From positions 8 to 64,007 of the forward strand of contig CAZFGT010000001.1 in assembly GCA_964518505.1 (NCBI GenBank): 64,000 bases of DNA, given 5' to 3'. The notes under the pieces are model-generated. The model was not told the origin of the DNA. It made no database searches and saw only the letters and a list, made by a program, of their open reading frames with translations. Positions 8,505 to 60,987 of this stretch are shown one piece after another. Source of the stretch: an uncultured Anaerolineaceae bacterium. Lineage in GTDB: Bacteria; Chloroflexota; Limnocylindria; Limnocylindrales; CSP1-4. A program made the translations under genes and the position numbers. Positions within the stretch are counted from its first letter, which is position 1, and each line of letters begins with the position of its first letter.

Positions 8505-8906
8505 GTGCTCGGTGACTACCTCGTCTTCCCCATCCTGCTGTCCAGGGATCTCGCGGTCAGTCGCGCCTTCTACCACGACACCCTGGGTCTGGAGATCCTC
8601 CGCGAGGACGGGGAGCGCATCATCTTCCGCTGCGGGAACGGCTCGCAGCTGTCGGTCACCCTGAGCACGATCGGGACCAGGGACTCGCAGACCCAGCTCG
8701 CGTGGCGGGTGCCCGACCTGAAGGCCGCGCTGGCCGATCTGCGTGCGCGCGGCGTCCGGATCGAGGCCTATGACGCGCCCGACCCGGTGACCGACGCGGA
8801 AGGGATCGCCGACATGGGCTTTGCCTGGTCGGCTTGGATCATCGATCCGAGCGGCAACGCGCTGGCCATCCTCCAGCCGAAGGCACCGCCGTCCCCGTCC
8901 GCCTGA
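8505..8906 (+). CDS. VOC/glyoxalase family protein
   Basis: RBS AGGAGG; SRAFYHDTLGL and AWIIDPSGNALAI motifs. Confidence 0.9.
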   Translation: MLGDYLVFPILLSRDLAVSRAFYHDTLGLEILREDGERIIFRCGNGSQLSVTLSTIGTRDSQTQLAWRVPDLKAALADLRARGVRIEAYDAPDPVTDAEGIADMGFAWSAWIIDPSGNALAILQPKAPPSPSA

Positions 8907-8925
8907 CGGCGGGGTCCGGGCCCTG

Positions 8926-9864: not shown

Positions 9865-9891
9865 GCTGAGGCCAGCCTCCATACTCGCCGG

Positions 9892-10818
9892 ATGCTCGAG
9901 GAGCTGGTCGACCGGGTCCACGGCTGGGTGCGCGCGACACCGATCGTGCGTCTGGCCGCCCCCACGCTGGCGGCGGCCTGGCACGCGACGGATCGCTCAC
10001 AGCCGCTCTATGCGACGAGACGACGGCTGTGGCAACTCCGCCATGGCCGGCGCAGCCGCTTCCCACTTCGCGTCGGGTTCACGCCCGAGGCGCCGCGCTA
10101 CTTCCACGCGGTCTACATGTTGTGCCAACGCCTGAACGTCGACATCGTCCCCGTCGATGGCGCCGACGTGGTGTTCCACTGGGCCGATGTCACGGTCCGC
10201 GCGGAGCCGCATGACCTGGACCCCACGGCCATCAATGCCCGCGTCCGCGACATCAGCAAGCGCCACGTCAGCGAGGTCCACGCTCAGGTCTTCGGCTACG
10301 ACCTCCAGCCTGACCCCGGCGCCACGGAATACGTCGAGAAATCCGACGCCAACGCCACGCACGATGGTCACGTCGTCGAGCGCGCCTCGGGTGCCGCCGG
10401 CGTCGTCGTCCAGCGTCTCATCGACAACCGGCTCGACGACCACGTGGTCATCGACTATCGCGTGTCGGTGATGGACGGGCGCATCGTCTGTACGCTCCAG
10501 CGCTACCGGCCGGTCGGTGATCGGTTCACCCACGCGGGGCACGTCGTCACGCTGGTGGTCGAGGCAGACAGCACGTTCGACCTGGATGAGCAGGCGCGGC
10601 TCGTCGGGATGTGCGAGGCCATGGGGGTCGACTGGGCGGACCTGGATGTCCTCCGCGACCGGTCGTCCGGCCGCCTCTACGTCGTCGACGTCAATCCCAC
10701 TCGAGGGCCGCCACACCCCAGTCACGTGGGCCCCGAACTGGCCCGGTACTGGCGACTGCAGGAACAGGGTTTCGCTGCCCTCCTCAAAGCCCACGCACGT
10801 CGGCCGCCGGCGTCGTGA
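9892..10818 (+). CDS. Hypothetical ATP-grasp-like protein (paralogue 2)
   Basis: Collinear with 8926-9864: KSDANATHDG, QRLIDNRLD, DLDVLRDRSSGRLYVVDVNPT. Confidence 0.65.
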   Translation: MLEELVDRVHGWVRATPIVRLAAPTLAAAWHATDRSQPLYATRRRLWQLRHGRRSRFPLRVGFTPEAPRYFHAVYMLCQRLNVDIVPVDGADVVFHWADVTVRAEPHDLDPTAINARVRDISKRHVSEVHAQVFGYDLQPDPGATEYVEKSDANATHDGHVVERASGAAGVVVQRLIDNRLDDHVVIDYRVSVMDGRIVCTLQRYRPVGDRFTHAGHVVTLVVEADSTFDLDEQARLVGMCEAMGVDWADLDVLRDRSSGRLYVVDVNPTRGPPHPSHVGPELARYWRLQEQGFAALLKAHARRPPAS

Positions 10819-11427
10819 GGCCGGTGCGGCGCATGAAGAGCCCCCGTCCCGCACCCAGGCAGGACAGGGGCCTTGCACCCACCCGAAGCTGTCGCACCGG
10901 GGGACACCCGGAGAAACGACGCGGCCGGTCGCTTCGTTACGCGGCCGCGCCGGGTCTGGTCACGAGCTGGTCGGCACCGCCGTCGGGGACGTGGCCGGCG
11001 TCACGGTCGGGGCCGAGCTGGCGGCCGGCGTTGACGTGGTCACGGGTGCCATGGTTGGCGACGTGACCGGGGCCACAGAGGCGCTCCGTAGGAGGAGGGA
11101 CGCCCCCGCCGGGTCGGACGGCTCCGCGCTACGGCGAGGTGTGCTCTGATCCCGCGGCCACGCGAAGCCTGGCCATGGTCACGTGGACCGCGTCAGGTGC
11201 GGTGTCTCCGGCCGAGCCCGGGCCGTTGCAAGTCCGTGACGACAGGGACCCGCGACGGCCCTGGGCGCCCAAAGGCCCGACCACCTGCGGTACTGCATGA
11301 CCGCCGGCGACCGGGCCTCTCGGCTATCCAGTTCACCCCTACTCAGCGGGGCGTGTGCTCATCGTGGACCAGCACGGCTGCGCACGTCGTCAACAGTGCG
11401 CACCGCACCCTTACGTTTTCGTGAACG

Positions 11428-14398: not shown

Positions 14399-16015
14399 TC
14401 AGGGCCCGCGGCGAGGCCGCGCGCCCGATGCGGCGCGGCCCGTCCGGGTGGCGCGACCCGGCCGCCCTGATGGGCCCGCTCGTCGCAATCGTGGCAGCTC
14501 CACCTTGGACCGCTCGCGGAAGACGAGACGGAGCGGGGTGCCATCGAAGCCGAAGCGCGTGCGCAGCTCGTTCTCCAGGTAGCGCCGGTAGCTGAAATGC
14601 ACGCGGTCCGCATCGCGGGCGAAGAAGACGAACGTCGGCGGGGCAACGGTGGCCTGGGTGGCGAAGAGGACCTTGGGTCGCTTGCCCTTCACCATCGGCG
14701 GCGTCTGACGGAAGGTGGCCTCGGCGACCATGCGGTTGAGTTCGGCGGTCGGGATGCGGCGACGGCGCTCGGCCGCGATGTCGACCGCCAGCTCAAGGAC
14801 CCGCTCCACGCGCTGGCCGGTGCGGGCGCTGATCGACACGACCGGAGCGAAGTCCAGGAAGGGGACCTGCGCCCGCAGGCGGGCGGCGAACTCGTCGAAC
14901 GTGCGGTCCGTCTTCTCCGCCAGGAGGTCCCACTTGTTGACGGCCACCACGAGGCCCTTGCCCTCCTCCACGACGTAGCCCGCCACGTGCGCGTCCTGGG
15001 CCGTCAGGCCGTCGACCGCATCGATCACCAGGACAGCCACATCGGCCCGCCCGATGGCCTTCAACGCGCGAAGGCTCGAGTAGCGCTCGGCAGCGGGTCC
15101 GCCGGCGACCCTGCCGCGCCGCCGGATGCCGGCCGTGTCGATGAGGCGCAGCGGCTGCCCGTGCCAGTCCAGGGAGGTGTCGATGGCGTCGCGAGTGGTG
15201 CCCGCGGTCTCGCTCACGATGACCCGCTCGTGGCCGAGCAGCGCGTTGAGCAACGAGCTCTTGCCCACGTTGGGCCGGCCCACGATGGCGATGCTGATGG
15301 GGCCGCGGGCGATGTCATCGGCCGCCACACGAGCGTCCCAGGCGGCGGCCGCCTCGTCCGGCGTGGGTGGTGGGCCCGCGGGCCCGAAGTCGGCCTCGTC
15401 CTCCGCCGCGGCCGCGGCCTCCTCCTCCTGCGCCTTGCGGGCCACCTCGGCGGTGGACTCGGGCGGCAGGGCCCACACGACCGCGTCCATCAGGTCGCCG
15501 GAGCCGCGCCCGTGCAGCGCGCTGAGGGCGTACAACTCCTCCCAGCCCAGGCGGTTGAACTCCGCGCCCTGCGCCTCCAGCCGCTCGCTGTCGGCCTTGT
15601 TGACGGCCACCAGGATGGGCACGCTCGAGCGACGCAGCAGCTCGGCGGCCTCCTGGTCGGCCGGTGTCTCCCCGACCCCCGCGTCGACGACGAACACGAT
15701 GACGTCGGCCTCGGCGATGGCCAGCCGCGCCTGCTCCTGGACCTTGGCCTCGATGACGTCGCCGGGATGCTGTTCCAGGCCGCCCGTGTCGACCACGATG
15801 AAGCGGCGGCCGTTCCATTCCGCCACGGCGTAAAGGCGGTCACGCGTGGTACGGGCACGATCCTCCACGATCGCCGTGCGCTCCCCCACGATGCGGTTGA
15901 AGAGCGTGCTCTTGCCCACATTGGGCCGTCCCACGAGGGCTACGACGGGCAGCCCGGCGAGCGGCGCGGTGCGGTCCAGCACGCCCCGCGAGCGCGACGA
16001 ACGACGTGTCGCCAC
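14399..16015 (-). CDS. der: Ribosome biogenesis GTPase Der (EngA)
   Basis: Two GRPNVGKS G1 motifs, DTGG/DTAG, NKAD/NKWD and a C-terminal KH-like domain ([10 protein letters not shown]). Confidence 0.97.
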
Positions 16016-16017
16016 GG

Positions 16018-16992
16018 TCAGGCGGCGCCGGCGATGTCGCGAGGGCGCGCGCCGCCGATCGAGGAGCTGCGGTAGGCCGCCTCGGCCACGGCCTGGAGGG
16101 CTTCGTGCGCCAGGCGCCGGGCGTCCACCTGTACGGCAGGGGTGCCGGCCAGCTCATAGATCCGCGCCGCGACCGCCTCCAGGTCCTCGATGGGGGTGCT
16201 CGTGCCGCCGGAGACGCCGACGAGGCGCGCGTCGCCGAAGGCGGCCGCATCGGCCAGGTCGGCGGCCGATTCGATCTGCAGGACCGGCGTCCCGGCGATC
16301 TCGCAGAGACGCGTCAGCTCGCGGGTGTTGGCGCTGCTCCGACCGCCCACCACGACCATCTGCTCGACGCGCCCGGCGAGTTCCAGGGTGTCTTCCTGGC
16401 GCCGGATGGTGACCGGGCACACGGTGTTGATGATCTTCAGCTCGTGGCTGCGCGACACGAGGAAGGCGGCCAGCTGCTCGAACTTCCACGGCGGCTGGGT
16501 GGACTGGCTGATGAGCGCCATCCGCTTGCGCCGGGGGATGCGCACCCACTCCTCCTGCTCGTCGACCACGATGGCGTCCGGGGCGAAGCCCAGCAAGCCC
16601 ACCGTCTCGGGGTGGTTGGGCGTGCCGAGGAGCACGATGGTGTAGCCGTCCTCGACGAGGCGCTCCATCTCCTTCTGCTCCTGCAGGACCCAGGTGCAGG
16701 TGCCGTCGATGACCTCCAGGCCGCGGCCCTGCGCCTCCGCCATCGTCTCCGGCGTGACGCCGTGGGCGCGGATCACGATGGCCGCCCCCGACTCCACCTG
16801 GCCAAGCGTCTCGACAGCGTGGATGCCCTGGGCGTCGAGCTCGGCGATGACGCCCGTGTTGTGCACGACCTGCCCCAACGTGTGGGTCCGCTTGCCCTGC
16901 GCGGCGGCGAGCTTGGCGTAATCGATGGCCTCGCGCACGCCGTAGCAGAAGCCCGTGCGCTTGGCGATGAGGACCTGTTCCACGCGTGCCAT
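16018..16992 (-). CDS. ispH: 4-hydroxy-3-methylbut-2-enyl diphosphate reductase
   Basis: GFCYGV, IRAHG, DGTC, HPE, NTVC, SSANT and GGTSTP motifs. Confidence 0.95.
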
Positions 16993-18522: not shown

Positions 18523-20011
18523 GTCCGCCTCCGGCGCGCTCGGCGGCCCGCACGCGGGCGACCACGCTGCGGACCGTGTGATCGAACGTCCGGCCGTCGC
18601 TGCGCACGATGACCGCGTCGAGGGGCACCCGCAGCGGCCCCACCGCCCGCTCGCTGTCGAGGGCGTCGCGCTGGCGCAGGTCGGCCAGGACCGCGGTCGC
18701 AGCCGGACTGCGCGGGTCGAGCGCGCGCTGCGCGATGCGGCGCTGGGCTCGCTCCTCCACGCTGACGTCCAGGTACAGCTTGAGGTCGGCGTCGGGCAGG
18801 ATGGCCGTGCCGATGTCGCGGCCGGCCATGATGATGCGCCCGGGTGCGGCGATGGCCCGCTGGACGGGCTGCAGGGCGGCCCGCACGGCGGGATGCTGGG
18901 CCACCTGGCTGACGTGGCGATCGACGGGCGTCTCGTGGACGGCGGTGGTCACGTCCATCCCGTCGGCCGTGACACGGGTCAGCCCCCCGTGGTCGTTGGG
19001 CGCCAGGACCACCTCCGGCACGAGAGCGGCCAGGGCAGCCCCATCGTCGAGGGCCGTCCCGCGCTCCAGGGCCAGCCAGGTCAGGGCCCGGTACAGCAAC
19101 CCGGTGTCGCAGAAGCGGTAGCCCAGGCGGAGCGCTGCGGCGCCCCCGACCGTGCTCTTGCCGCTCGAGGCTGGCCCGTCCAGGCTGACGATGAGGCCCG
19201 GCCGGGCTGCGTCGCGGTGCGCCGTGGTGCCGGGCGCCCCGCCGGCCCCCGGACCGCCCAGCCGGCGGACCTCGGCGGGCTCGAGCTCGCGCGCCTCACC
19301 CGACGCCAGGTCGGCCAGCCACAACGTCCCGATGCGCACCCGCACGAGGCGCAGCACCGGCACCCCGACGGCGGCGAACATGCGGCGCAGCTGGCGGCGC
19401 CAGCCCTGGGCGATCGTGACCCGATACCACCCGTCGGGTGTCGGCGGTGGGACGACCGAGGCGGCCAGCTTGGCCGTCTCGGCCGCGGTCGCGGGTCGCA
19501 GGTCGCCGATCTGGGCCAGACCCTCGTCGAGGGCGACGCCGTTGCGCAGCGTGGCAGCCTGCCGCCCGTCGAGGGTCCCCGCCACCTGCACGGCGTACTC
19601 GCGGGCCAGCTCGTGGCTGGGGTGGGCCACCCGCTGCGACCAGTCGCCGTCGTTGGTCAGCAGCACCAGGCCTTCCGAGTCGCGGTCCAGGCGGCCCACG
19701 GGGTAGATGCGGCCGGCCCGCGCCAGGATCGCCGGCGGAACGAGGTCGATGACCGTCCGCGCGGCGTGGCGGTCGCGGACCGTGCTCGTCACGCCGACGG
19801 GCTTGTTGAGCGCCAGGTACACGTGACCGGCCGGGGCGCGCAGTGGCCGCCCGTCGACCAGGATGCGCGCTGCGCGCGGATCGACGCGCTGGCCAAGATG
19901 GGCGGGGACGCCATCGACCTGGACGCGCCCGGCGACGATAAGGGCCTCCGCCCCCCGGCGGGACGCCACCCCGGCATCGGCGAGGACCTTCTGCAGCCGG
20001 ACCTCAGCCAT
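18512..20011 (-). CDS. cmk: Fused rRNA pseudouridine synthase (RluB-like) and cytidylate kinase
   Basis: S4 domain RLQKVLADAGVASRR, VGRLDRDSEGL, then LDGPASSGKST, FCDTGLLYRA and GRDIGT in one uninterrupted frame. Confidence 0.92.
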   Translation of the reverse strand: MAEVRLQKVLADAGVASRRGAEALIVAGRVQVDGVPAHLGQRVDPRAARILVDGRPLRAPAGHVYLALNKPVGVTSTVRDRHAARTVIDLVPPAILARAGRIYPVGRLDRDSEGLVLLTNDGDWSQRVAHPSHELAREYAVQVAGTLDGRQAATLRNGVALDEGLAQIGDLRPATAAETAKLAASVVPPPTPDGWYRVTIAQGWRRQLRRMFAAVGVPVLRLVRVRIGTLWLADLASGEARELEPAEVRRLGGPGAGGAPGTTAHRDAARPGLIVSLDGPASSGKSTVGGAAALRLGYRFCDTGLLYRALTWLALERGTALDDGAALAALVPEVVLAPNDHGGLTRVTADGMDVTTAVHETPVDRHVSQVAQHPAVRAALQPVQRAIAAPGRIIMAGRDIGTAILPDADLKLYLDVSVEERAQRRIAQRALDPRSPAATAVLADLRQRDALDSERAVGPLRVPLDAVIVRSDGRTFDHTVRSVVARVRAAERAGGGHAG

Positions 20012-45893: not shown

Positions 45894-48739
<2,846 letters not shown>

Positions 48740-48778
48740 TCAGCGGACCCTCAGGGAAGCGTGCTACCGTCCGCTGCC

Positions 48779-50323
48779 GTGACAGCATCGTGGTCGCGGC
48801 GACGCTTCCTGCAAGCCTCCGTGGGCGCTGTCGCCGGGGCCTTCGCCGTCGGCGTCGCGGCCGATGAGATCTTCCTTGGCCGCGTCGGAGCGCGTGGCGC
48901 CAGCGCCACTGCCTCGCCCACACCCACCGGCCCGGCGAAGTCCATCCCGCCGGTGGCCCGCGCGCTGTATCGCTCGCGTGGCGACCTCGCGCCGCAGGTC
49001 ATGACCGTCTCCACGCCGGCCATCGGCACGGCGCCCGGTTTCCTGTTCACCACGCCGTCGTACAACTTCAAGAGCGACGGCCCGGCCATCTACGACGACC
49101 GCGGCTCGCCGGTGTGGGTGCATCCGCTGACCGGAACCACGACCGCGGAAGGGTTCCGCGTGGCGTCCTTTGGTGGCACGCCCGTGCTCACGTGGTGGGA
49201 GGGGACCGTCTCCGCCCAGGGCCTTGGCGCGGGCCAGTACGTCATCGCCGACGACACGTATCGCGAGATCGGCCGTTTCGGGGCCGCCGATGGCGTGGCC
49301 GGCGACCTGCATGAGTTCCTCATCACGCCGCAGGGCACGGCCCTGATCATCGCCGGCCGCGAGGTCCAGCTGGCGTCCCCGGTCACGGTGGCAGCTTCGG
49401 GCAGCGTCGCCCCCACGATCGTGACGACCGCCTGGGAGGGCATCGTCCAGGAGATCGACATCGCGACCCAGAAGGTCCTCTTCGAGTGGCACAGCATGGA
49501 CCACGTCGATCCGGCCGAGTCGTACCTCCCGTTGCCCAGCACCCCCGGCCAGGCCTACGACTACCTGCACATGAACTCGATCGATGTCGATACGGACGGC
49601 AACCTGCTGCTGTCGGCTCGCCATACGTTCTGCGTCTACAAGATCGACCGCACCAGTGGCGCCGTCATGTGGCGCCTGGGCGGCAAGAAGGGCGACTTCA
49701 CGATGGGCCCGGGCACGGCCTTCGCCTGGCAGCACGACGCGCGCCGGCAGGCCGATGGCACGATCACCGTGTTCGACGACGACCAGGCCCCCAACGGGTC
49801 ACGTGGCCTCGTGCTTGAGGTGGATGAGACGGCCAAGGCGGCGAGCCTCATCCGCGCCTACGCCCACCCGCCGTCGATCCAGTCGACCAGCCAGGGCAAC
49901 ATGGAGGTCCTGCCGAACGGCGACGTGTTGATCGGCTGGGGTAGCCAGCCCAACGTCACGGAGTTCGATCAGCCGGGCAAGGTCGTCTTCGATGCGGCCC
50001 TGCCGCCGGGCGGCTCGTCGTACCGCGCCTTCCGTTTCCCCTGGGTGGCCCGCCCGACCGAGCCGCCGGCCATCGCCCTGGACCTCAGCGAGCCCGGCAC
50101 CCTGACGGCCTTCGTCAGCTGGAACGGCGCGACCGAGGTAGCCAGCTGGGAGCTGCTGGGTGGCGGCACGCCGGCCACCCTCACGCCGCTCGCCTCGGCG
50201 CCACGTGACGGCTTCGAGACGGCCTTCGCGATCCCCAAGCGACCGGCCTTCGTGGCGGCCCGCGCCCATAGCTTCACGGGCCTCGTCCTGGGCACCTCAC
50301 CGGTCATCACGACGACCCTGTAA
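48779..50323 (+). CDS. Tat-exported arylsulfotransferase (ASST) family protein
   Basis: SRRRFL twin-arginine signal; LTWWEG, DLHEF, HMNSI, SARHT, WQHDAR and SYRAFR motifs. Confidence 0.85.
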   Translation: MTASWSRRRFLQASVGAVAGAFAVGVAADEIFLGRVGARGASATASPTPTGPAKSIPPVARALYRSRGDLAPQVMTVSTPAIGTAPGFLFTTPSYNFKSDGPAIYDDRGSPVWVHPLTGTTTAEGFRVASFGGTPVLTWWEGTVSAQGLGAGQYVIADDTYREIGRFGAADGVAGDLHEFLITPQGTALIIAGREVQLASPVTVAASGSVAPTIVTTAWEGIVQEIDIATQKVLFEWHSMDHVDPAESYLPLPSTPGQAYDYLHMNSIDVDTDGNLLLSARHTFCVYKIDRTSGAVMWRLGGKKGDFTMGPGTAFAWQHDARRQADGTITVFDDDQAPNGSRGLVLEVDETAKAASLIRAYAHPPSIQSTSQGNMEVLPNGDVLIGWGSQPNVTEFDQPGKVVFDAALPPGGSSYRAFRFPWVARPTEPPAIALDLSEPGTLTAFVSWNGATEVASWELLGGGTPATLTPLASAPRDGFETAFAIPKRPAFVAARAHSFTGLVLGTSPVITTTL

Positions 50324-50388
50324 CCCCTCCCGGGCAGGCGCGGCCGGCGCGGCGCGGCACAGCGCGCGGGCCCGAGATGTGCGCGTCT

Positions 50389-50515
50389 TTGCACCCCATG
50401 ACGCATCCGACGGCTGAACGCACCCTCACCTGCCCTTCCGTTCGCGCCGCGCAACGCACATCACCCGAGCCCGCCAGTTGGAGCCTTCCCACGTCCGATA
50501 CGTCACGCCATGCAA
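50389..50515. repeat. Inverted-repeat element family B, copy 1 (REPIN/MITE-like)
   Basis: TTGCA-N6-GACGCATCCGAC (50389-50411), 81 nt spacer, GTCCGATACGTC-N4-CATGCAA (50493-50515). Second copy at 60020-60147. Confidence 0.75.
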
Positions 50516-50566
50516 CAAGCGTGCGGCACCGCTGCCCGCGGCCTGAGGCCAGGGCCAGCGGCGGGG

Positions 50567-53272
50567 CTAGGAGCCCGAGACCTCCAGGTTGGCCAGGCTG
50601 GCCAGGAGGCGTTTCACACCGTGGTCGGGAAAGGCGACCGTGACTTCCTCGTCGTCACGGGTCAGCTTGGAGGTCACGACGCGCCCCTCGCCGAAGGCGC
50701 GATGCCGCACCCGGTCGCCGTCGCGGTAGCGCCGCTGGCCGGGGATGGCGGGCGTGGCCGGCACCGCCCAGGCGGCCGGGCTGGCGGGAGAGGCGCCGCT
50801 CGGTCGGTCGGTGGCATCGGGCGCCGTCCCGTAGTACGCGGCGCGCTTGGCGGCCAGATCGCGCGTGGGCCGGAACGCCTCGCCGGGCCGCGGCGCGCCG
50901 ACCGACTCCGCCACGTAGCCCCCGCCCGGTGGCAGGATGCGCGGACCCATGGGCCGCGATCGCCCGCGGTCGTACAGCCGCGCCGTACCGCGTCGCCCGA
51001 GCACCACGTCCAGGTCCAGCGGGCCGCCGGCGCGCTCGTCCGGTGAGCGCTGGTCGTCGTCGTAGCCGTCGTCGGCCAGGACGAGACGCGGGCCGTGCAT
51101 CAACTCCCCGGGGATCTCCATGAGGAAGCGGCTCGGCGTGGAGAAGCCGCCGCGGCCCCAGGTCGCCCGCTGCGCGGCGTGGGTCAGGTACAGGCGGTGG
51201 CGCGCCCGGGTCAGGCCCACGTAGGCCAGGCGCCGCTCCTCCTCCATCTGGCGTGGGTCCTCCAGCGCCCGGCTGTGGGGGAAGACGCCCTCTTCCAGGC
51301 CGGTGATGAACACCACGTCGAACTCCAGGCCCTTGGCCGCGTGGAGCGTGATGAGGGTGACGGCGTCGGAATCGCGGTCGTAAGCGTCCTGGTCGGCCAC
51401 CAGGGCGGTCTCCTCGAGCAGGCGGTCGAGCGCGTCGTCGGGAGCCAGGTCGGCGTAGCGCTGGAAGACCTCGCGCAGCTCGAGCAGGTTGGCCCAGCGT
51501 TCCTCGCCCTCCTCGGTCCCGTCGGCGAGCATGGCCCGGTAGCCCGACTCCTCCAGCACCGCGTCCAGGAGCTCGGGCAGCGGCAGGACCCCGATGCGCG
51601 TCCGCAGGCGCCGCACGATCTCCGCGAAGGCCCCGAGGGCCGCCCGCGTCCGTGTGGCCATCTCGGGGTCGTCGATGGCCAGGAGGATGCCCTGCCACAC
51701 GTCCCCCTCGACGGTCGCGGCGAGGCGGCGGATGGTGGCCAGCGTCTTCTCGCCGAGGCCACGGGCCGGCACGTTGAGGATGCGCTCGAAGGCCGCCACG
51801 TCGCGGTCGTTGCGCAGCACCCGCAGGTAGGCCAGGGCGTCCTTGACCTCACGGCGCTGGTAGAAGCGCACGCCGCCGACCAGCTGGTAGCGCAGGCCGT
51901 AGCGCAGGAACGCTTCCTCGATCGGCCGGGACTGGGCGTTGGCGCGGTACATGATGGCGATGTCACGCAGGTGGTAGAGGCGCTCGTCGCCCTCGTCGGC
52001 GCGCCGAGCCAGCACCGACCCACCGGCCCCGCGCCCGTGCACCAGGGCGTCGGCCTGGCGGGCGATCCACTCGGCTTCCTCGTCCTCCCGGTCGGCCTCG
52101 AAGCGCTCGATCAGCACGCCGCGCGGGTTCTCCGTCCAGAGACGCTTGTCCTTGCGTCCCTCGTTGCGGCTCACCACGGCGTGGGCGGCGTCCAGGATGA
52201 GCTGCGTGGAGCGGTAGTTCTGCTCCAGCTTGACCACCGTGGCCTGGGGGTAGTCCTTCTCGAACTCCAGGATGTTCGTGATGTCCGCGCCGCGCCACGA
52301 GTAGATGCTCTGGTCGTCGTCGCCGACCACGGCCAGGTTGTGGTGGCGTGCCGCGAGCGCGCGGACCCACAGGTACTGGGCGCGGTTGGTGTCCTGGTAT
52401 TCATCGACGTGCAGGTAGCGCCAGCGCTCCTGGTAGCGAGCGAGGACCGCCGGCGCCTCGTCGAAAAGGTGCACGGCCTCGATGAGCAGGTCGTCAAAGT
52501 CAAGCGCCCCGGCGGCGTGGAGCCGCGCCTGGTAGCCGCGGAAGGCACGGGCGGCGAGTTGCTCGTGGTAGGTGTGGGCGGCCTTGGCCGCCTCGTCGGG
52601 CCCCAGCAGCTCGTTCTTCCAGCGGCTGATCGTGCCCAGCATGACCGACGGGCGGGTCTCGCCGGTCCCGGCCAGCTCCAGGTCGCGCAGGACCTGCTTC
52701 ATGAGGCCGTTCTGGTCGTCCGTGTCGTAGATGGCGAAGCGCGCATCCAGGCCGATGGCCGACCCGTCGCGCCGCAGGACCCGCGCGCAGAGGCCGTGGA
52801 AGGTGCCCATCGCCACCTGACGGCCGGCGTCCGGCCCCACCAGCGTCATGATCCGCTCGCGCATCTCGGCGGCGGCCTTGTTGGTGAACGTGACGGCCAG
52901 GATCTGCCACGGGCGGACGCCCTTGACGCCGATGAGGTAGGCCACGCGGTGGGCCAGGACACGGGTCTTGCCGCTGCCGGCACCGGCCAGGATGAGGAGC
53001 GGACCCTCGGTCGTCGTGACCGCCCGGGCCTGTTCTGCGTTTAGGCGGGCGACGATGTCGCGGGCCAGCGCCTCGCGGTCGACCGGGGCCGCAGGCGCCC
53101 CGTCAGGGCCGGCCGCCGCCGCCGGAAGTCCGACCGCCCCGAACCATGCCGCGAACTCGGCCGGTTCCTGGGGCGTGGCATCCAGCAGCTCGTCCGGCAG
53201 CTCCAGGGCCGCGTCCGGCGCGTCCTCGGGCGGCGCCTCCAGCTCCCCCACCGACCTGCGCGTCGCCTTCAC
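50567..53272 (-). CDS. pcrA: ATP-dependent DNA helicase PcrA/UvrD
   Basis: AGAGSGKT, VDEYQDTN, QNYRS, TLHAAKGLEF, EEERRLAYV and a C-terminal Tudor-like domain. Confidence 0.96.
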   Translation of the reverse strand: MKATRRSVGELEAPPEDAPDAALELPDELLDATPQEPAEFAAWFGAVGLPAAAAGPDGAPAAPVDREALARDIVARLNAEQARAVTTTEGPLLILAGAGSGKTRVLAHRVAYLIGVKGVRPWQILAVTFTNKAAAEMRERIMTLVGPDAGRQVAMGTFHGLCARVLRRDGSAIGLDARFAIYDTDDQNGLMKQVLRDLELAGTGETRPSVMLGTISRWKNELLGPDEAAKAAHTYHEQLAARAFRGYQARLHAAGALDFDDLLIEAVHLFDEAPAVLARYQERWRYLHVDEYQDTNRAQYLWVRALAARHHNLAVVGDDDQSIYSWRGADITNILEFEKDYPQATVVKLEQNYRSTQLILDAAHAVVSRNEGRKDKRLWTENPRGVLIERFEADREDEEAEWIARQADALVHGRGAGGSVLARRADEGDERLYHLRDIAIMYRANAQSRPIEEAFLRYGLRYQLVGGVRFYQRREVKDALAYLRVLRNDRDVAAFERILNVPARGLGEKTLATIRRLAATVEGDVWQGILLAIDDPEMATRTRAALGAFAEIVRRLRTRIGVLPLPELLDAVLEESGYRAMLADGTEEGEERWANLLELREVFQRYADLAPDDALDRLLEETALVADQDAYDRDSDAVTLITLHAAKGLEFDVVFITGLEEGVFPHSRALEDPRQMEEERRLAYVGLTRARHRLYLTHAAQRATWGRGGFSTPSRFLMEIPGELMHGPRLVLADDGYDDDQRSPDERAGGPLDLDVVLGRRGTARLYDRGRSRPMGPRILPPGGGYVAESVGAPRPGEAFRPTRDLAAKRAAYYGTAPDATDRPSGASPASPAAWAVPATPAIPGQRRYRDGDRVRHRAFGEGRVVTSKLTRDDEEVTVAFPDHGVKRLLASLANLEVSGS

Positions 53273-53336
53273 CGGCCGATTCTACGGGAAGGCCCTTGGC
53301 AGGCCATGGCTGCGCCCCGACGCTATCCTCGGGGCG

Positions 53337-54284
53337 ATGGCACGGTATGGGGTGGCGCGGCTGCTGGCAGCCCTCCTCACGAGCGCCCTGCTCGTTGCCT
53401 GCGGATCGACATCAGTGACCCCGACGCCAACTCCCTCGTCGGTGGCGTCCACCGTCCCGACGAGCACCCCGACGGCCTTGCCCACCCCGACCCCGACGCC
53501 GTCACCGACACCCACCCCCACACCCGTCGCCACACCGCCGCCGCTCGTCCTGCACCACTGTCCCGGTCGCGCGGCTACCGCCCTCGGCGGCGCGGTGAAC
53601 TTCGAGTCGACCAACTGGAGTGGCTACGTCGCAGGCAACGGCCGGAGCCGCCAGGTCACGTGCGTCGAGGGCGCCTGGATCGAGCCGATCGTGACCTGCC
53701 CCAAGTCGGGCACGAGCGATGTCGCCATCTGGGTCGGCCTCGACGGCTCGTCCAGCGAGCACCTGGGTAACGCGGCCATCGGGCCCGAGCAGGTCGGGAC
53801 CCAGGTCGACTGCCGCGATGGGGCGCTCTCACACGGCGCCTGGTGGGAGACCGTCCCCAGCCTGGATCATTCGATCGACTTCGGCGACGTCATCCGGCCC
53901 GCCAGCGGAGACCACATGTGGGCCCAGGTCATCTATGGCCCGCACGGTTTCACGATGACCCTGACCGACCTCACCAGCCAGGAGACGGACTCGATCACGC
54001 AGCAGGTCAAGGGCGCGCCGCGTCTGACCGCCGAGTGGATCGTGGAGGCCCCCAGCGAGGCCTGCGGCAAGGCCACCTGCACGGTGCTGGCGCTGGCCAA
54101 GTTCGCCAAGATCGTCTTCACCGGCGGCCTGGCGGTGATCGCCGGCCGACTCGGGTCGATCGGCGACCGCCACTGGTCACGCGACGAGATCACGGACGTC
54201 ACCACCAGCGGGACACACCGCACGACCGTCTCGGGCCTCGCCTCCAAGGGCCAGTCGTTCACCGTGACCTGGCACCACGTCTAG
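53337..54284 (+). CDS. Lipoprotein with a glutamic peptidase G1 (eqolisin/Peptidase_A4) domain
   Basis: Lipobox LLVAC, PT linker, STNWSGY, WVGLDG, EQVGT (Gln) and AEWIVE (Glu). Confidence 0.85.
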   Translation: MARYGVARLLAALLTSALLVACGSTSVTPTPTPSSVASTVPTSTPTALPTPTPTPSPTPTPTPVATPPPLVLHHCPGRAATALGGAVNFESTNWSGYVAGNGRSRQVTCVEGAWIEPIVTCPKSGTSDVAIWVGLDGSSSEHLGNAAIGPEQVGTQVDCRDGALSHGAWWETVPSLDHSIDFGDVIRPASGDHMWAQVIYGPHGFTMTLTDLTSQETDSITQQVKGAPRLTAEWIVEAPSEACGKATCTVLALAKFAKIVFTGGLAVIAGRLGSIGDRHWSRDEITDVTTSGTHRTTVSGLASKGQSFTVTWHHV

Positions 54285-54368
54285 CGTCGCGCTAGCAGCC
54301 GGCCGTCGGGTTCCGCGGCCCCTGAGGTCGGCGGCGCTCCCATCGGCCCCCACCTATCTGGTCGTACA

Positions 54369-54514
54369 TGACTGGGGGGCACGTTAGAGCCGAAATCCGG
54401 CCCCGAAAGCGCCGCCCGAGTGGCCGCCGAGGTCTCGATCGAGCGTGGATACGGCCTGACCTGCCAACGCCCGCTCCGGAATGCTGCTCTAACGTGCCCC
54501 GGTATCAGATCTGA
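54369..54514. repeat. Inverted-repeat element family A, copy 1 (REPIN/MITE-like, 146 bp)
   Basis: Perfect 15-bp inverted repeat GGGGCACGTTAGAGC (54376-54390) / GCTCTAACGTGCCCC (54486-54500), ending in palindrome TCAGATCTGA. Second copy at 55525-55670. Confidence 0.8.
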
Positions 54515-54542
54515 CCGCGTGGCTGCGGCGTGCGGCCGCCGA

Positions 54543-55469
54543 TCAGGCCGGCGGACGGCGATAGCGGCGCAGGACTGACCGGCGGCGAAACCCGACCGAC
54601 GTGTAGAGCGCCTCGGCAGCGTCGTTCGCCGTATCGGACAGGACCTGGACGAGGCGCGCCCCGAGCGCCGCGTAGCGATGGAGCGCATGGTCGAGCAGGG
54701 CGCCCCCGAGGCCCAGCCGCTGATGGTCGGGATGCGTTCCGACCGGCTCGAACTCACCGACCTTGGCGACCGGATCCCACCAGGCCATGGTGAAGGCGGC
54801 GAATGACCCGTCGGAAGCCTCGACGACGAGGTCGTCCTCGAAGCGGTAGTTGGGCAGCCCGACGAGCCGTTCGTACTTGTCGACGCTCATCCGCGAGGGC
54901 GCGAAGGCGGCCCGGTGGACCTCGACTCGGGCCGGGATCTCGGCCAGGCCAGCGACCGGGCGGATCCGATAGCCCGGCGGCAGCGGGCGTCGTGGCCGGT
55001 CCGCGATGTCGGCGACCGTCCGCTGGAACTGGGAGAACGCCGGGTGGCCGCTGCCCGGTGTGGGAGCAAGGATGAAGCCGGACGTCTCAAGGCGACCGAT
55101 CAAACCCACGTCGTCGGCCCACATCACCAGGGCCCCATCCGCACCTGCTGCGGCACGATGCGTAGCCCCAGCGATGGCCCAGTCCAGGAGGGCGGCCTGG
55201 ACCGCCGCATCGACCTGCGGGTCGCCGCTCCAGACCTGGGCCGCGAGTTCGACCTCATCGACCCAGCTCCAGCCGACGACGCGCTTTCCGGCCGACCACA
55301 GCCGGAGGTGCTGCGACAGGTCGGCCGGCCAGGCCTGGGCGTACCACCACGAGAGATCGCCCGGCGTCACATCCACGAACGGCGCGCGCGCGAGCCATGC
55401 CTGGCTGAGGACGTCGGCGGCGGCCTGCAGATCGGCGATGCCGACGGCCGGCCGCGAGGTGACATGCAC
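54543..55469 (-). CDS. GNAT family N-acetyltransferase
   Basis: GEFEPVGTHPDHQRLGLG and AEALYTSVGF motifs; GTG start 6 nt after TACCCT. Confidence 0.88.
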   Translation of the reverse strand: MHVTSRPAVGIADLQAAADVLSQAWLARAPFVDVTPGDLSWWYAQAWPADLSQHLRLWSAGKRVVGWSWVDEVELAAQVWSGDPQVDAAVQAALLDWAIAGATHRAAAGADGALVMWADDVGLIGRLETSGFILAPTPGSGHPAFSQFQRTVADIADRPRRPLPPGYRIRPVAGLAEIPARVEVHRAAFAPSRMSVDKYERLVGLPNYRFEDDLVVEASDGSFAAFTMAWWDPVAKVGEFEPVGTHPDHQRLGLGGALLDHALHRYAALGARLVQVLSDTANDAAEALYTSVGFRRRSVLRRYRRPPA

Positions 55470-55524
55470 CGGCCAAGGGTACGGCGCGGGCCCGCAAGGT
55501 TGGAGGGCAGAACCTGTCCAAACG

Positions 55525-55670
55525 TGACTGCGGGGCACGTTAGAGTCGCTTTCGACCCGCCCGCGGGGGCTTCAAACGGCCTCGGCCGCACAGGCTCAGC
55601 GTGATCCGGGCGATCGGCGGTGTCCTGCGGCTCTGACAACCGCCCTAACGTGCCCCCGAGTCAGATCTGA
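55525..55670. repeat. Inverted-repeat element family A, copy 2 (146 bp)
   Basis: Left arm matches copy 1 at 22/24 nt and right arm at 25/29 nt; the interior is not similar by eye. Confidence 0.8.
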
Positions 55671-55690
55671 GCATCTTGCCCCGGCACGCC

Positions 55691-56269
55691 TTACCGGAGC
55701 GCCTCGTAGTGGAGGAGGATCTCCTTGTTCTTGCCCGGCTTCGTCTCGATGAGACTCAGCGTCGTCTGACCGTCCATCGGTCCCCAGTACCGAGGACCCT
55801 TCCCGTAGACGACAGGCATGACGAAGAACCAATAGTCGTCGGCGAGGTTGCGGCGGAGGCACTCCCGGACCACGGCGGGGCCCCCCTCGAGGATGATGTT
55901 CCCGCCCTCCTCACGCTTCACCTGCTCGAGGATCTCAGCGAGATCACCGCTCAGGATCCGCGAGTTCTCCCAGTCGGTGGACGCGAGGCGGTGCGAGAGG
56001 CAGACCTTCTCGACCCGGTCCAGGTAGCGTCGATAGTCGATGAGCCATGCCGGCTCGCTCGGATCGAGCGCCTTCTCGCTCCACGTCTGCTGGTGACCGA
56101 GAAAGGATCGTCGGCCCATGACGACCGTCGTAACGTCGTCGAACCGGTCGTACCACATGTTTCGAAAGAGCGGGTTGGGCTCGGTCGACGGCTGACCCGA
56201 CGTCGGATACTCCGGGAAGACGCCGCGGCCGTCCAGGGTCATGTACACGTTCGCCGTGATCTTCCGCAT
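55691..56269 (-). CDS. Dihydrofolate reductase / RibD C-terminal family protein
   Basis: YMTLDG, VMGRRSF, EGGPAVV and VMPVVYGKG motifs. Confidence 0.88.
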   Translation of the reverse strand: MRKITANVYMTLDGRGVFPEYPTSGQPSTEPNPLFRNMWYDRFDDVTTVVMGRRSFLGHQQTWSEKALDPSEPAWLIDYRRYLDRVEKVCLSHRLASTDWENSRILSGDLAEILEQVKREEGGNIILEGGPAVVRECLRRNLADDYWFFVMPVVYGKGPRYWGPMDGQTTLSLIETKPGKNKEILLHYEALR

Positions 56270-56470
56270 CCCCTCATCCTCCGAGCCGTCCGACCATTCG
56301 CCGTGGAGGTTCCGCTTCCGAGGTAGGGAAGGATAGGCATCGAGACACATCCGTGGGCATGGGGTCCAGCGCGGCCGAGGTCGTTTCTGGCTCGTCGCGA
56401 GAACCTGGTCGAACTTGCCTCGCCTCGCCGCCAGGCGCGGGCGCACGAGCGATGGCCTCCGTATCAGTCG

Positions 56471-56866
56471 TCAGTCGCGTTGCGGCAGCGCCCCTGCATC
56501 GAGAAGGGCGGCGTGGGCGGCAAGGAAGGCCTGCCGGCCGGCCGGGCTGCCGCAGTAGGCCGTGACATGGACCATGACCTCGCGGATCTCGTCGACCGTG
56601 GCGCCGCAGTTGAGGGCGCCGCGGGTGTAGATGGAGACCTCTTCAGACCGCCCGAGCGCGGCCAGGATGCCGAGGCTCAGGAGGCACTTGGTCTTCCGGT
56701 CGATCGCCGTTCCGGTCCAGGCCCGTCCCCAGGCCTGCTCGGTGACCAGATCCTGGAAGGTCATCATGAAGTCGTCTGCGGCCGCCAGGTTGCGATCGAC
56801 GTAGGCATCGCCGAGGACAGCCCGACGCGCCGCCAGCCCATGCCGATAGGTATCCGTGCGGTCCAT
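56471..56866 (-). CDS. Carboxymuconolactone decarboxylase family protein
   Basis: GLAARRAVLGDAYV, AWGRAW and HVTAYCGSP motifs. Confidence 0.88.
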   Translation of the reverse strand: MDRTDTYRHGLAARRAVLGDAYVDRNLAAADDFMMTFQDLVTEQAWGRAWTGTAIDRKTKCLLSLGILAALGRSEEVSIYTRGALNCGATVDEIREVMVHVTAYCGSPAGRQAFLAAHAALLDAGALPQRD

Positions 56867-56977
56867 GGAGTCTCCTCCGTGCAGCGTGAGAGCCGGCCAT
56901 CCGCGGACGGACGACCGGCTCTCACCGTTCCCTGATCGGACGATCCGACGGCGCGGACGCCGGCGGACGCGAGCGGA

Positions 56978-58684
<1,707 letters not shown>

Positions 58685-59014
58685 TCAGTCTTCGAGGACG
58701 GCGAGGATGTCCTTCTGGCTGACGATGAGGAGCTCATCGCCTTCGATCTTGAACTCGGTGCCGGCGTACTTGGCGTAGAGGACCCGCTGGCCCTCCTTGA
58801 CGTCCATGGACTCACGCTTGCCGTCGTCGAGGATGCGGCCAGGGCCGGCGGCGAGGATCGTGCCCTCCTGGGGCTTCTCCTTGGCCGTGTCGGGCAGCAC
58901 GATGCCGCTCTTGGTCATCTCTTCACGGGCGGTGGGCTTGATCACGCAGCGGTCGCCCAGGGGGCGGAGCTTGGTCTTGCCCGAGGTCTTCTTGGTCGCC
59001 GAAGCGGTCGCCAA
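58685..59014 (-). CDS. groS: Co-chaperonin GroES
   Basis: LRPLGDR, SGIVLPDTAKEKP and KYAGTE motifs; TTG start after RBS AGGAGG. Confidence 0.97.
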   Translation of the reverse strand: MATASATKKTSGKTKLRPLGDRCVIKPTAREEMTKSGIVLPDTAKEKPQEGTILAAGPGRILDDGKRESMDVKEGQRVLYAKYAGTEFKIEGDELLIVSQKDILAVLED

Positions 59015-59158
59015 CGCGGATCCCTCCTGAAGGTTCCTGATGGGTGCGGGACCCCGGCGTGGGACAGGTCGCGGCCGCGGCCCTGCTGGGCTGGGATCGA
59101 CCGCGCGGCACACCGGCCGCAGCGTCCCGAAGCGGTCGGGGTCGACCGCGATGTGAGA

Positions 59159-59185
59159 TTAGCACTCCCAACGCGAGAGTGCTAA
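59159..59185. promoter_or_regulatory. CIRCE operator (HrcA binding site)
   Basis: Exact TTAGCACTC-N9-GAGTGCTAA upstream of groES-groEL. Confidence 0.97.
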
Positions 59186-59186
59186 C

Positions 59187-59216
59187 AGCCTACCGGAGGT
59201 GTCGGGGGCCTGTCAA
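59187..59216 (-). promoter_or_regulatory. Sigma70-type promoter of groESL
   Basis: TTGACA-N18-TAGGCT directly upstream of CIRCE. Confidence 0.75.
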
Positions 59217-59239
59217 GCGGGAGACCGTAGACTCGCCTG

Positions 59240-59983
59240 GTGGTCGTTCCCGTGCGGCTCGAGCTGCCCCTCCGCGTCCGTTTCGACGAGTGTGGCGCCG
59301 ACGGCTGGCTGCGCTCGTCCGCGGCGCTGCGCTACGCGCAGGACCTGGCGTGGGCCCATTCCGAGTCGGCCGGCTTCGACCGCCGCTGGTACGCCGATCG
59401 GGGCCTGATGTGGCTCGTCCGATGCCTCGGGCTCAAGATGCGAGGCACCGTCGCGAGCGGGGCCACGGTCGCCGTGTCGACCCAGGTGACGGGCTGGCGG
59501 CGCGTGTGGGCCCGTCGCCGGAGCGAGATCCATGCGGACGGCGGGGCGCTCCTCGCCGTCGTGACCACCGACTGGGTCCTGCTTGGCGCGAGTGGTGCGC
59601 CGGTCCGCATCCCGGCCGACATCCTGGCCGCCTTTCCCGGCCGCTTGCCCGACTTCCAGCCCGCCCGGGTCGAGCTGCCCGAACCACCCGGGGATGCGCG
59701 GTCGGGCCGGCTGACCGTCCGCCGCCACGAGCTGGATCCGATCGGCCACGCCAACCACGCCGTCTACGCCGACTGGGTGGAGGAGGCCGTGGCGGCGGCG
59801 GGTGGCGAGGGCGTCATCGCGGCCGTACCGCGGACCATGGACCTGGAGTTCGTGCGCTCGGCCACGGCCGCCATGGCCGTGACCTCCGCCACCTGGCGGC
59901 TCCCCGATGGCGCCTGGGCCTGCCGCCTCACCGATCCGTCGGGCGCCGAGCTCCTGCGGGCGAGGGTCGCGGCCGAGCGCTGA
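59240..59983 (+). CDS. Acyl-ACP thioesterase family (double hot-dog) protein
   Basis: VRFDECGADG in the N-half; ELDPIGHANHAVYADW in the C-half. Confidence 0.85.
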   Translation: MVVPVRLELPLRVRFDECGADGWLRSSAALRYAQDLAWAHSESAGFDRRWYADRGLMWLVRCLGLKMRGTVASGATVAVSTQVTGWRRVWARRRSEIHADGGALLAVVTTDWVLLGASGAPVRIPADILAAFPGRLPDFQPARVELPEPPGDARSGRLTVRRHELDPIGHANHAVYADWVEEAVAAAGGEGVIAAVPRTMDLEFVRSATAAMAVTSATWRLPDGAWACRLTDPSGAELLRARVAAER

Positions 59984-60019
59984 GCCGCAGTGGCCGGCCC
60001 ATGAGCGCACCCCCCTGGT

Positions 60020-60147
60020 TTGCAGGCGAAGACGCATCGGACGCCGGAACGAGCGCTCGGCCGTCGACCGTGTCACGCGACGCACCGGATCGCAGCGGAG
60101 CAGACGGATCCTGGCCTTTCGTCGGTCCGATACGTCGTGGCATGCAA
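60020..60147. repeat. Inverted-repeat element family B, copy 2
   Basis: TTGCA-N6-GACGCATCGGAC (60020-60042), 82 nt spacer, GTCCGATACGTC-N4-CATGCAA (60125-60147). Confidence 0.75.
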
Positions 60148-60168
60148 GGGATCTCGGCCCGGCGAGCA

Positions 60169-60987
60169 TCAGGCCCCTCGGAAGATGCGGTCGTAGTTGG
60201 CCACGAGCTGGTCGCCCAGGGCATCCGGAGCCAGCTGCCGTTGGTCGGCCAGCCAGTGCGCCGTGACGGTCACCCAGGCCGGCTCGTTGCGGCGCCGCGG
60301 AGCACCGGGCGGTGACAGGTACGGCGAGTCCGTCTCCACGAGCAACCGGTCGGCGGGCACGCGGCGCGCGACGGCGGCCGAGGCCTCCTCGCCGTTGCGA
60401 AAGACCAGCCCGCTGAAGCTGATGGCGAGGCCCAGCTCCAGCGCCGCCTCGGCATAGGCCACGGGTCCCGAGAACGAGTGCAGCAGGGCCGGCGGCCGCC
60501 CACCGAACGCCTCGCGCCACGCCTGGTCCCCCACCCCGGCCCTGCGCAGCTCGGCGATGAGCTCGTCCTGGGCGTCGCGAGCGCCGTTCGCGGAGCGGCA
60601 GTGGATCACGGCCGGCTTGCGCGTGGCAAGAGCCAGGGCCAGGTTGCGCCGCAGGTTCGCCAGCTGGGCGGGACGCGGCGAGAAGGCCCGGTCGTAATCC
60701 AGCCCGGTCTCGCCGATGGCCACCACCCGGTCACCACCGGCCAGGCCTACGATGGCCGACCACCCGGCGTCATCGACCTGCGCAGCGACGTGCGGGTGCA
60801 CCCCCACCGCCACATCGATCCACGCGTGGCGCCCGGCCAGCTCGAGCGCCCCGGATGACGACGGCACGTCCCACCCGGGGTCCAGGATCCGCTCGACGCC
60901 AGCCGCAGCAGCGGCCGTGGCCACCTTGTCCGCGTCCGCGGCGAAGGCCTCCGCCTGCAGATGCGCGTGGGAATCGATCAGGCGCAT
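60169..60987 (-). CDS. tatD: TatD family hydrolase
   Basis: DSHAH, GVHPH, GETGLD, IHCR, HSFSG and ETDSPY motifs. Confidence 0.93.
   Translation of the reverse strand: MRLIDSHAHLQAEAFAADADKVATAAAAAGVERILDPGWDVPSSSGALELAGRHAWIDVAVGVHPHVAAQVDDAGWSAIVGLAGGDRVVAIGETGLDYDRAFSPRPAQLANLRRNLALALATRKPAVIHCRSANGARDAQDELIAELRRAGVGDQAWREAFGGRPPALLHSFSGPVAYAEAALELGLAISFSGLVFRNGEEASAAVARRVPADRLLVETDSPYLSPPGAPRRRNEPAWVTVTAHWLADQRQLAPDALGDQLVANYDRIFRGA

Follow-up and report, generated by a model that had tools for sequence, protein, structure and literature searches.

We examined 64,000 nucleotides of an uncultured Anaerolineaceae bacterium (contig CAZFGT010000001.1 of assembly GCA_964518505.1, positions 8 to 64,007; hereafter the window) and find that they carry two members of a family of short intergenic elements, which we call family B. 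Family B elements are apparently low-copy, non-coding modules of about 128 bp that are vertically inherited and kept by selection in this Limnocylindria-like (Chloroflexota) bacterium of 72% G+C. Within each module, a single 32-bp motif occurs three times in a set order. From the way the sequence is conserved, we tentatively favor the explanation that these copies are double-stranded DNA (dsDNA) binding sites for one putative protein and that the array would form a boundary module in intergenic DNA.

The two copies in the window, element 1 (50389-50515, minus strand, 127 bp) and element 2 (60020-60147, minus strand, 128 bp), were picked out as a repeat pair by an earlier sequence-only reading, and the sequence is as that reading described it. 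The pattern TTGCA-N6-GACGYATCSGAC has four exact sites (0 mismatches) in the 64 kb. Written as the 23-nt pattern TTGCANNNNNNGACGYATCSGAC, the sites fall at 50389(+), 50515(-), 60020(+), and 60147(-), forming two inverted pairs whose spacers measure 81 nt in element 1 and 82 nt in element 2, the same values as reported earlier. There is no fifth site in the window at up to 3 mismatches, where 0.74 are expected by chance, and a paired-arm score scan gave zero matches in 10 shuffled windows. The similarity of the arms is far beyond chance. The conserved arm is 32 nt long in 4/4 window arms (TTGCA-N6-GACGYATCSGAC-N4-GAA-N-G), all four having the inward extension …GAC-N4-GAA-N-G in common. The arms had been thought to differ by a variable gap of 4 to 6 nt, but “N4 + CATGCAA” is the same N6 gap, and the two arms of an element are symmetric, each with TTGCA-N6-core. 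With a third locus (L048:2309-2436) and the orthologs of elements 1 and 2 in a related species (L053:19164-19292 and L053:10927-11054), five elements can be compared, with total lengths of 127, 128, 128, 128, and 129 nt. All copies start with TTGCA and finish with TGCAA (or TGCAG / TCCAA). The earlier view of a genuine family of fixed length therefore stands, the third locus being 128 bp and the orthologs 128 and 129 bp.

To describe the interior, we derived a 32-nt position weight matrix (PWM) from the ten arms and then scanned it over the five elements, each read from its first repeat, R1, onward (for the two window elements, along the minus strand). The motif consensus is TTGCAyGCCATGACGyATCsGACG-N3-GAAsG (32 bp). 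In the resulting layout, R1 runs forward (1-32), and a degenerate forward copy, R2 (63-94), follows after a linker of some 30 nt in which a short GCTC island is conserved; last comes an inverted copy, R3 (97-128). R1 and R2 point in the same direction, 62 bp from start to start, and R3 abuts R2. R2 is present at position 62-64 in 5/5 elements, always directly oriented relative to R1, with PWM scores of -6.2, 9.8, 15.3, 13.6, and 10.4 (background 99.99th percentile, 2.8). The summed score of 42.9 compares with -147 ± 16.5 for shuffled interiors (maximum -70 in 2000 shuffles). The spacers, previously called non-similar, thus hold a third degenerate motif copy and shared islands (GCTC, CGTTGC), while the interiors of the paralogs do otherwise differ. 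In element 1, R1 is at 50484-50515 on the minus strand (TTGCATGGCGTGACGTATCGGACGTGGGAAGG; PWM score 44.1), R2 at 50423-50454 on the minus strand (TTGCGCGGCGCGAACGGAAGGGCAGGTGAGGG; -6.2), and R3 at 50389-50420 on the plus strand (TTGCACCCCATGACGCATCCGACGGCTGAACG; 44.9). This R2 is the weakest of the five, at about the 99.9th background percentile, and sits where the other four do. In element 2, R1 is at 60116-60147 on the minus strand (TTGCATGCCACGACGTATCGGACCGACGAAAG; 44.8), R2 at 60054-60085 on the minus strand (GTGCGTCGCGTGACACGGTCGACGGCCGAGCG; 9.8, above the 99.99th background percentile), and R3 at 60020-60051 on the plus strand (TTGCAGGCGAAGACGCATCGGACGCCGGAACG; 38.9). R1 is better conserved than R3. 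R1 usually has GACGKATCGGAC at the place of GACGCATCCGRC in R3, the 12-nt cores differing at position 5 in 5/5 elements and at position 9 in 3/5, so that two core positions would usually be mismatched if the arms paired. No consistent PWM match marks a fourth repeat in the R1-R2 linker, and the window has no isolated motif copy elsewhere, the best other score being 7.2, against 39-45 for true arms. Separately, the ASST gene of the related species contains two family-B-like motifs side by side in inverted orientation (L053:20456-20521; PWM 2.1 and 10.3), which may be a chance occurrence.

Comparison with relatives, whose tatD neighborhoods we found through TatD homologs, indicates that the modules are maintained by selection. 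In L053, with a TatD 81% identical to that of the window, both elements are kept at the same gene junctions (after tatD, 10927-11054; after pcrA, 19164-19292). The copies were thus inherited and not recently inserted, which goes against the mobility first suggested for them. Identity between the L053 elements and those of the window is 76-78% overall and 67-77% in the interior, and no alignment needs more than 4 gap columns. For the same pair of species, identity at fourfold-degenerate sites is 46% in tatD and 58% in the thioesterase gene, which is saturated, and the spacers that flank the elements differ 2- to 6-fold in length and are unalignable. Given that the elements are so similar amid saturated fourfold sites and unalignable flanks, the whole 128 nt bears the mark of purifying selection between species. 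The elements are also lost. L011 is closer to the window than L053 is (fourfold identity 69%), yet it lacks both elements, with a pcrA/ASST gap of 10 bp. L012, L013, and L054 also lack both, L054 retaining a one-arm remnant (R3, 1689-1720), and in L056, L057, and L061 the copy at tatD is absent. Presence in L053 combined with absence from closer relatives indicates that the elements are ancestral but dispensable, and that one clade at least has lost both jointly. Their joint absence from the closest clade is what would be expected had a trans-acting partner been lost. At the strain level, variants of element 2 are found in L014, L016, L020, and L021; none could be added from diverged strains, whose Logan contigs were too fragmented.

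Few further copies exist in the collections that we searched. A scan of 185,579 species, each represented by a single genome, for the two 12-nt cores at a distance of 70-100 nt found no family B member. The ten loci that matched are all look-alikes and none is a relative: seven are proteobacterial and prophage-like, and three are single matches in Pseudomonas, Beijerinckiaceae, and Rhodococcus. The number of independent matches is about that expected by chance. With look-alikes only, we reject the idea of a widespread family. A single-arm scan of metagenome contigs returned 28 loci. Five are the window's two elements or the new locus, seen in further samples of this series, L024 has the L048-type third locus in truncated form, and the other 22 have an arm without a partner arm. 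This third locus is on a rhizosphere contig of the same sample series, is 128 nt long, and has one perfect arm and one arm with 16/21 positions matched. A profile search of 540 kb of collected sequence found no further full copy, plasmids and phages gave no match, and viral contigs gave only one single-arm match. Three loci, each seen in about two contigs, are a lower bound, because L022, a known carrier of element 2, did not come up in the scan. A family numbering hundreds should nevertheless have shown up. The known copy number of family B is low, and the family shows no sign of present mobility. The abundance of a mobile or REP-like (repetitive extragenic palindromic) family, as first supposed, is therefore not seen, with three loci in the metagenome scan and none with both cores in the species genomes. 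Likewise, the autonomous partner gene that might be bounded by these arms was not found in these searches, nor were target-site duplications seen.

Two of the look-alike groups deserve description in their own right. At the seven proteobacterial loci (L001:3758-3899 and the matching regions of L002-L004, L007, L008, and L010), three TGACGCAT-type repeats, two direct and one inverted 79-81 nt away, lie in the gap between a D5_N primase-helicase gene and a gene with a product starting MTTTILALDLGTTTGWA (no Pfam match). DUF6362 and ParB-methylase genes follow, and the region is probably an iteron or origin region. As in family B, one motif is used in direct and inverted orientation within about 100-130 bp, and the 12-mer GACGCATCCGAC / GTCGGATGCGTC and the 79-81 nt spacing are common to both. 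However, this match was forced by the search pattern, independent matches are near chance, and the remaining sequence and gene context are unrelated. In Rhodococcus xishaensis, a stretch of 125 nt with inverted repeats (L006:7027-7151) separates a tRNA gene from an RNase_T-like gene downstream of dnaG. Beyond the 12 search-forced bases it has TGACGCATCGGACGTGGG(C)AAGG in common with R1 of element 1, and TGACGCATCG recurs in it in direct orientation. It may represent a remote relative in the actinobacteria or match by chance.

The genes around the elements are ordinary chromosomal genes (metG, tatD, groES/EL, pcrA, ligA, der, ispH, cmk, and scpAB). Element 1 lies between the ASST-domain gene, which ends at 50323 (+), and the PcrA/UvrD gene, which ends at 50567 (-); element 2 lies between the acyl-ACP thioesterase gene, which ends at 59983 (+), and tatD, which ends at 60169 (-). 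Pfam confirms the domains, and both pairs are convergent, as originally described. A convergent gap is not obligatory for the family, though, given that the L048 copy lies between divergent genes, a membrane-protein gene on the minus strand whose coding frame starts at or before 2215 and a luciferase-like/UbiA gene that starts at 2598. The three loci thus comprise two convergent gaps and one divergent gap. No partner gene sits beside the L048 copy, its neighbors encoding the membrane protein, a GNAT protein, a LigD-like protein, and the luciferase-like/UbiA fusion. The window sequence recurs in at least 18 rhizosphere metagenome runs, and its named TatD homologs, at 73-74% identity, are from Candidatus Limnocylindrales and Chloroflexi bacterium CSP1-4, which makes the host an uncultured and probably Limnocylindria-like member of the Chloroflexota. 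Two simple roles for the elements can be set aside. No GC-skew switch occurs at the elements, which removes a marker of the replication terminus or origin, and a small open reading frame (ORF) from the ATG in R1 of element 2, while open through the window copy, stops after two codons in L053 (by eye).

We next asked whether the modules act as a folded strand or as a duplex. In the window, the minus strand folds better than the plus strand by way of G·U pairs (z -1.96 and -1.79 versus -0.7 and +0.2). This preference is absent from the third copy, which has no strand bias, and reverses in L053, where the substitutions favor plus-strand pairing (counted from the aligned arms). We therefore reject a minus-strand RNA hairpin, the z-scores not being significant in any case. 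With the arms kept constant, the interior gains no stability over its dinucleotide shuffles (z -0.7 to +2.5, R1-first strand), and single arms do not fold (-0.7 to -4.3 kcal/mol; z -0.15 to +1.1 versus shuffles). Covariation between R1 and R3 is no higher than in shuffles, 349/500 of which reach it. The L053 changes break 3-4/12 core pairs, and the N6 and N4 gaps are kept in length and not in complementarity. The RNAalifold consensus, a closing stem with three small hairpins and a few double changes, is weak at -19.6 kcal/mol with a covariation term of -0.6; comparing orthologs contributes no more than two or three further double changes, along with several pairs that are broken. A rod-like or cloverleaf consensus fold, being weak and lacking covariation, was also rejected. 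The constraint on structure that the sequence-only reading had suggested is thus not borne out by covariation or by the stability of the interior, and of the two kinds of end it had offered, “protein-recognised or structure-constrained”, the first is the better option.

Several observations fit the recognition of dsDNA better than that of a folded strand. It is the sequence that is conserved and not the pairing; the gaps are fixed in length but unpaired; R1 and R2 form a direct repeat, for which a simple hairpin has no need; the interior does not fold; and R1 and R3 differ consistently at two core positions. Based on this pattern, we propose that the module most likely acts as dsDNA. Its three sites would be bound by a sequence-specific and probably multimeric protein, which would keep some twelve helical turns of intergenic DNA looped or wrapped in a fixed way. 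The complex might then serve as a boundary, either as a transcription roadblock or insulator or as a topological barrier between neighboring transcription units. We do not extend this proposal to gene-specific regulation, to mobility, or to a stable RNA.

Other findings weigh against this proposal. No candidate binding protein for the three sites came up, and the protein is putative; a 32-bp site in three copies could equally be the old ends bound by a transposase. The inverted arms can form a hairpin or cruciform, given that R1 and R3 make 91% standard pairs in register versus 21-40% when slid, and pairing of R3 alternatively with R1 (91%) or with R2 (78%) would also suit a switch in RNA or single-stranded DNA. 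The covariation test was low in power, with only five independent sequences. In the metatranscriptomes that we could reach, no reads fall on the elements and only the conserved groEL is covered, so that these data neither show nor exclude transcription through them. Finally, the copy number rests on an incomplete contig collection, as the missed L022 illustrates.

The main rival, which we consider unlikely but which accounts for much of the architecture, is a hairpin element of the REPIN or BIME (bacterial interspersed mosaic element) type. The inverted arms would pair with each other in transcripts that read through or in DNA that is single-stranded, a protein such as a RAYT-type enzyme, gyrase, or an RNase would recognize the base of the fold, and the element would act as a transcript-end hairpin or as a persistent, formerly mobile replicator. 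In REPINs as published (PMC3116915), the two inverted ends are conserved, and the spacer between them is less so, although its length is important. Family B has the same plan, with highly conserved inverted 32-nt arms and a constrained total of 127-129 nt, and its in-register complementarity and the G·U pairing of the minus strand in the window species are as this rival would have them. Both kinds of element are extragenic, family B twice between convergent genes, and both persist for long periods by vertical inheritance. Family B persists at orthologous sites and was lost jointly in one clade, as is reported for REPIN populations that lose their RAYT (10.1101/2021.07.10.451892). However, REPINs number tens to hundreds per genome, and we know of three family B loci from a metagenome scan of an incomplete contig collection. 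Each REP is an imperfect palindrome, whereas single family B arms do not fold, and the REPIN spacer folds with compensatory changes, whereas that of family B is not hairpin-prone and does not covary. RAYT genes are flanked by REPINs, and we see no RAYT/Y1 transposase among the genes scanned with Pfam (about half of those in the window, those beside the L048 copy, and the precomputed Pfam tables of relatives). The better pairing of the plus strand in L053 and the missing U-tract also speak against this rival, and the extra direct repeat, R2, is left without a role unless it serves alternative pairing. For the BIME side of this rival, the nearest models are the BIMEs and RIP/RIB elements of E. 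coli, in which REP pairs surround an integration host factor (IHF) site and are bound by gyrase or IHF. BIMEs are about 100 bp long, often lie between convergent genes, and have proposed roles in organizing DNA or at transcript ends; they are high-copy in E. coli, and their binding proteins are known. Like them, family B is a composite intergenic module of roughly 100 bp with inverted repeats and a central, here putative, protein site. The sequences are unrelated, though, the phylum is different, and the copy number in E. coli is high.

A second alternative, which we judge rather improbable, is a cis-acting or processed RNA element located in the 3' untranslated regions (UTRs) of pcrA and tatD or of the genes opposite, and in a 5' region at L048. 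Its paralog-specific interiors would be kept by selection, for instance as a protein-binding platform or a UTR-derived small RNA. This would explain why the whole 128 nt is conserved between species, including an interior at 67-77% identity, while the flanks are not, and why the paralogs are alike at their ends and a few islands and differ inside, as paralogous small RNAs do. The closing stem and three small hairpins of the consensus, with their few double changes, would be its fold. Against it, that fold is weak on both energy and covariation, and the fold energies cannot be told from those of shuffles. Neither window gap has a sigma-70-like promoter or, on either strand, an intrinsic terminator (hairpin plus U tract), so an RNA of its own would have neither. 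Rfam gave no match at the gathering score, nor did 49900-60400 or the gap in L053 match when the threshold was E ≤ 5, which rules out a known RNA. At L048, a likely extended -10 element, TGGTAGCGT, of the co-oriented gene (by reading of the sequence) lies downstream of the copy, which may thus not be transcribed with that gene. The lack of reads in the metatranscriptomes points the same way.

The weakest of the rivals, and in our view a poor prospect, is an old relic of a miniature inverted-repeat transposable element (MITE) whose 32-bp terminal repeats and one sub-terminal site, with ends TG…CA, were once bound by a DDE transposase and which is now immobile and decaying, or exapted. Family B is short, non-coding, and present in several copies, with terminal inverted repeats of about 32 bp (about 30 bp in MITEs), a size of about 128 bp, and a block structure with an internal extra copy that recalls multi-site transposon ends. 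It is patchy among relatives, with decay (the R3 remnant of L054) and outright deletion (the 10-bp gap of L011), and a second family of similar size, family A, lies nearby. In contrast to MITEs, the flanks of the five copies have no direct repeat in common, and none of the five shows a target-site duplication. No parent insertion sequence, near-identical copies, or autonomous element with these ends appeared in genome, metagenome, viral, plasmid, or phage searches, the single-arm scans of metagenome and viral contigs giving only these loci and chance single matches. The positions are orthologous between species, and an interior and length conserved over a divergence that saturates synonymous sites argue against neutrality.

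Integron recombination sites are a further point of comparison. An attC site is an imperfect inverted repeat, 57-141 bp in length, that is located just after a gene and is conserved at its ends but variable at its center, and attI combines direct repeats with an inverted core. However, the end polarity is opposite: all family B copies start with TTGCA and run TTGCA…TGCAA, and the attC consensus is R'' RYYYAAC … R' GTTRRRY. We see no integrase, and family B is flanked by syntenic genes of the housekeeping kind rather than by cassettes.

The sequence family is undescribed: it has no Rfam family and lacks defining features of a REPIN, a MITE, an attC site, and an intrinsic terminator. The intergenic repeat module with inverted ends is already known as a kind, and the new points are the triple-repeat layout and the evidence for selection. 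A stronger claim, to which we give little credence, is that the dsDNA array proposed above is an undescribed kind of selectively maintained boundary module, in which three 32-bp sites in a → … →← layout over about 12 helical turns, with a dedicated putative protein, would mark transcription-unit ends as a roadblock terminator, an insulator, or a supercoil barrier. If so, such modules would matter in a very G+C-rich lineage in which the two gaps scanned have no canonical intrinsic terminator. Limnocylindria-like Chloroflexota are abundant in soil and freshwater and are known here from metagenome assemblies alone, their non-coding DNA being unexplored. Family B offers a clean case of a non-coding module kept between species amid scrambled surroundings, and its internal grammar of three ordered 32-bp copies predicts one protein with three footprints. 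If this prediction holds, family B would offer a handle on how these genomes separate neighboring transcription units or organize DNA locally, and it would caution that not every inverted-repeat pair should be filed as a mobile REP or MITE. Were it a decaying transposon relic, it would be ordinary.

Two other intergenic elements occur in these regions. Family A comprises two 125-bp elements, 54376-54500 and 55532-55656, with terminal inverted repeats GGGGCACGTTAGAGC and dissimilar interiors, which bracket a GNAT acetyltransferase gene (54543-55469, minus strand). L011 has neither this gene nor family A, with 44 bp between its RibD_C and Peptidase_A4 genes, and in L053 family-A ends at 14438 and 15903-16026 surround a different gene, for a Na/Ca exchanger. 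The bracketed gene thus looks like cassette-type variable cargo. Family A has no third internal repeat, so families A and B do not have the R1-R2-R3 layout in common. The X42 and X43 contigs (from runs of unrecorded type) join 54390 to 54486 and omit the family-A interior; a relative could truly have a shorter allele here, or the assembly could have collapsed at the inverted repeat. The second, element X, is a very conserved non-coding stretch of about 150 nt in the tatD-thioesterase gap of relatives (L011:10990-11145, L012:10855-11010, L013:11595-11750, L053:11085-11240, L054:1755-1905); the window lacks it. A stem of about 30 bp closes the element (TTTGCGGCCAGCGGTCACAGTGACGGAGC / GTTCCTCCGTCGTTGTCGACGCTGGATGCAAA), and the one copy scanned, that of L053, has no Rfam match. 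There is a weak alignment of its central part with positions 45-103 of family B (nhmmer E 0.002-0.02), to which it may be distantly related. The suggestion that families A and B represent several mobile or DNA-organizing systems holds insofar as family B is real, and is not supported for the mobility of family B. If the boundary proposal is true, family B, family A with its variable cargo, and element X would point to a lineage-specific repertoire of intergenic nucleoprotein elements of 125-150 bp.

The gap that holds element 2 is itself variable. It measures 185 bp in the window (59984-60168), 341 bp in L011, 461 bp in L053, 35 bp in L057, and 2.7 kb in L052, where oxidoreductase and MFS genes are inserted; in L061 the gene calls overlap and there is none. 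The gap of L058 belongs to the same variable series as those of L052, L056, L057, and L061. Several relatives (for example, at L052:10611-10724 and L058:2508-2673) have a conserved block downstream of tatD, GATGCGGTCGAAGT, whose complement is found in the final codons of the gene, ACTACGACCGCATC. The two may form a structure at the transcript end; the window has no such downstream block. Next to element 1, the 1444-aa ORF at 45989-50323 labelled ASST is probably not a single gene. The ASST match covers its last ~500 aa, the ASST genes of relatives are 495-520 aa long, and an opposite-strand ORF with high G+C at third codon positions (46559-48703) corresponds to the position of ligA in relatives. 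Lastly, direct repeats of 73-76% identity at a spacing of 957-963 bp (9085-10721) represent two tandem paralogous genes, 8821-9864 and 9892-10818, each without a Pfam match.

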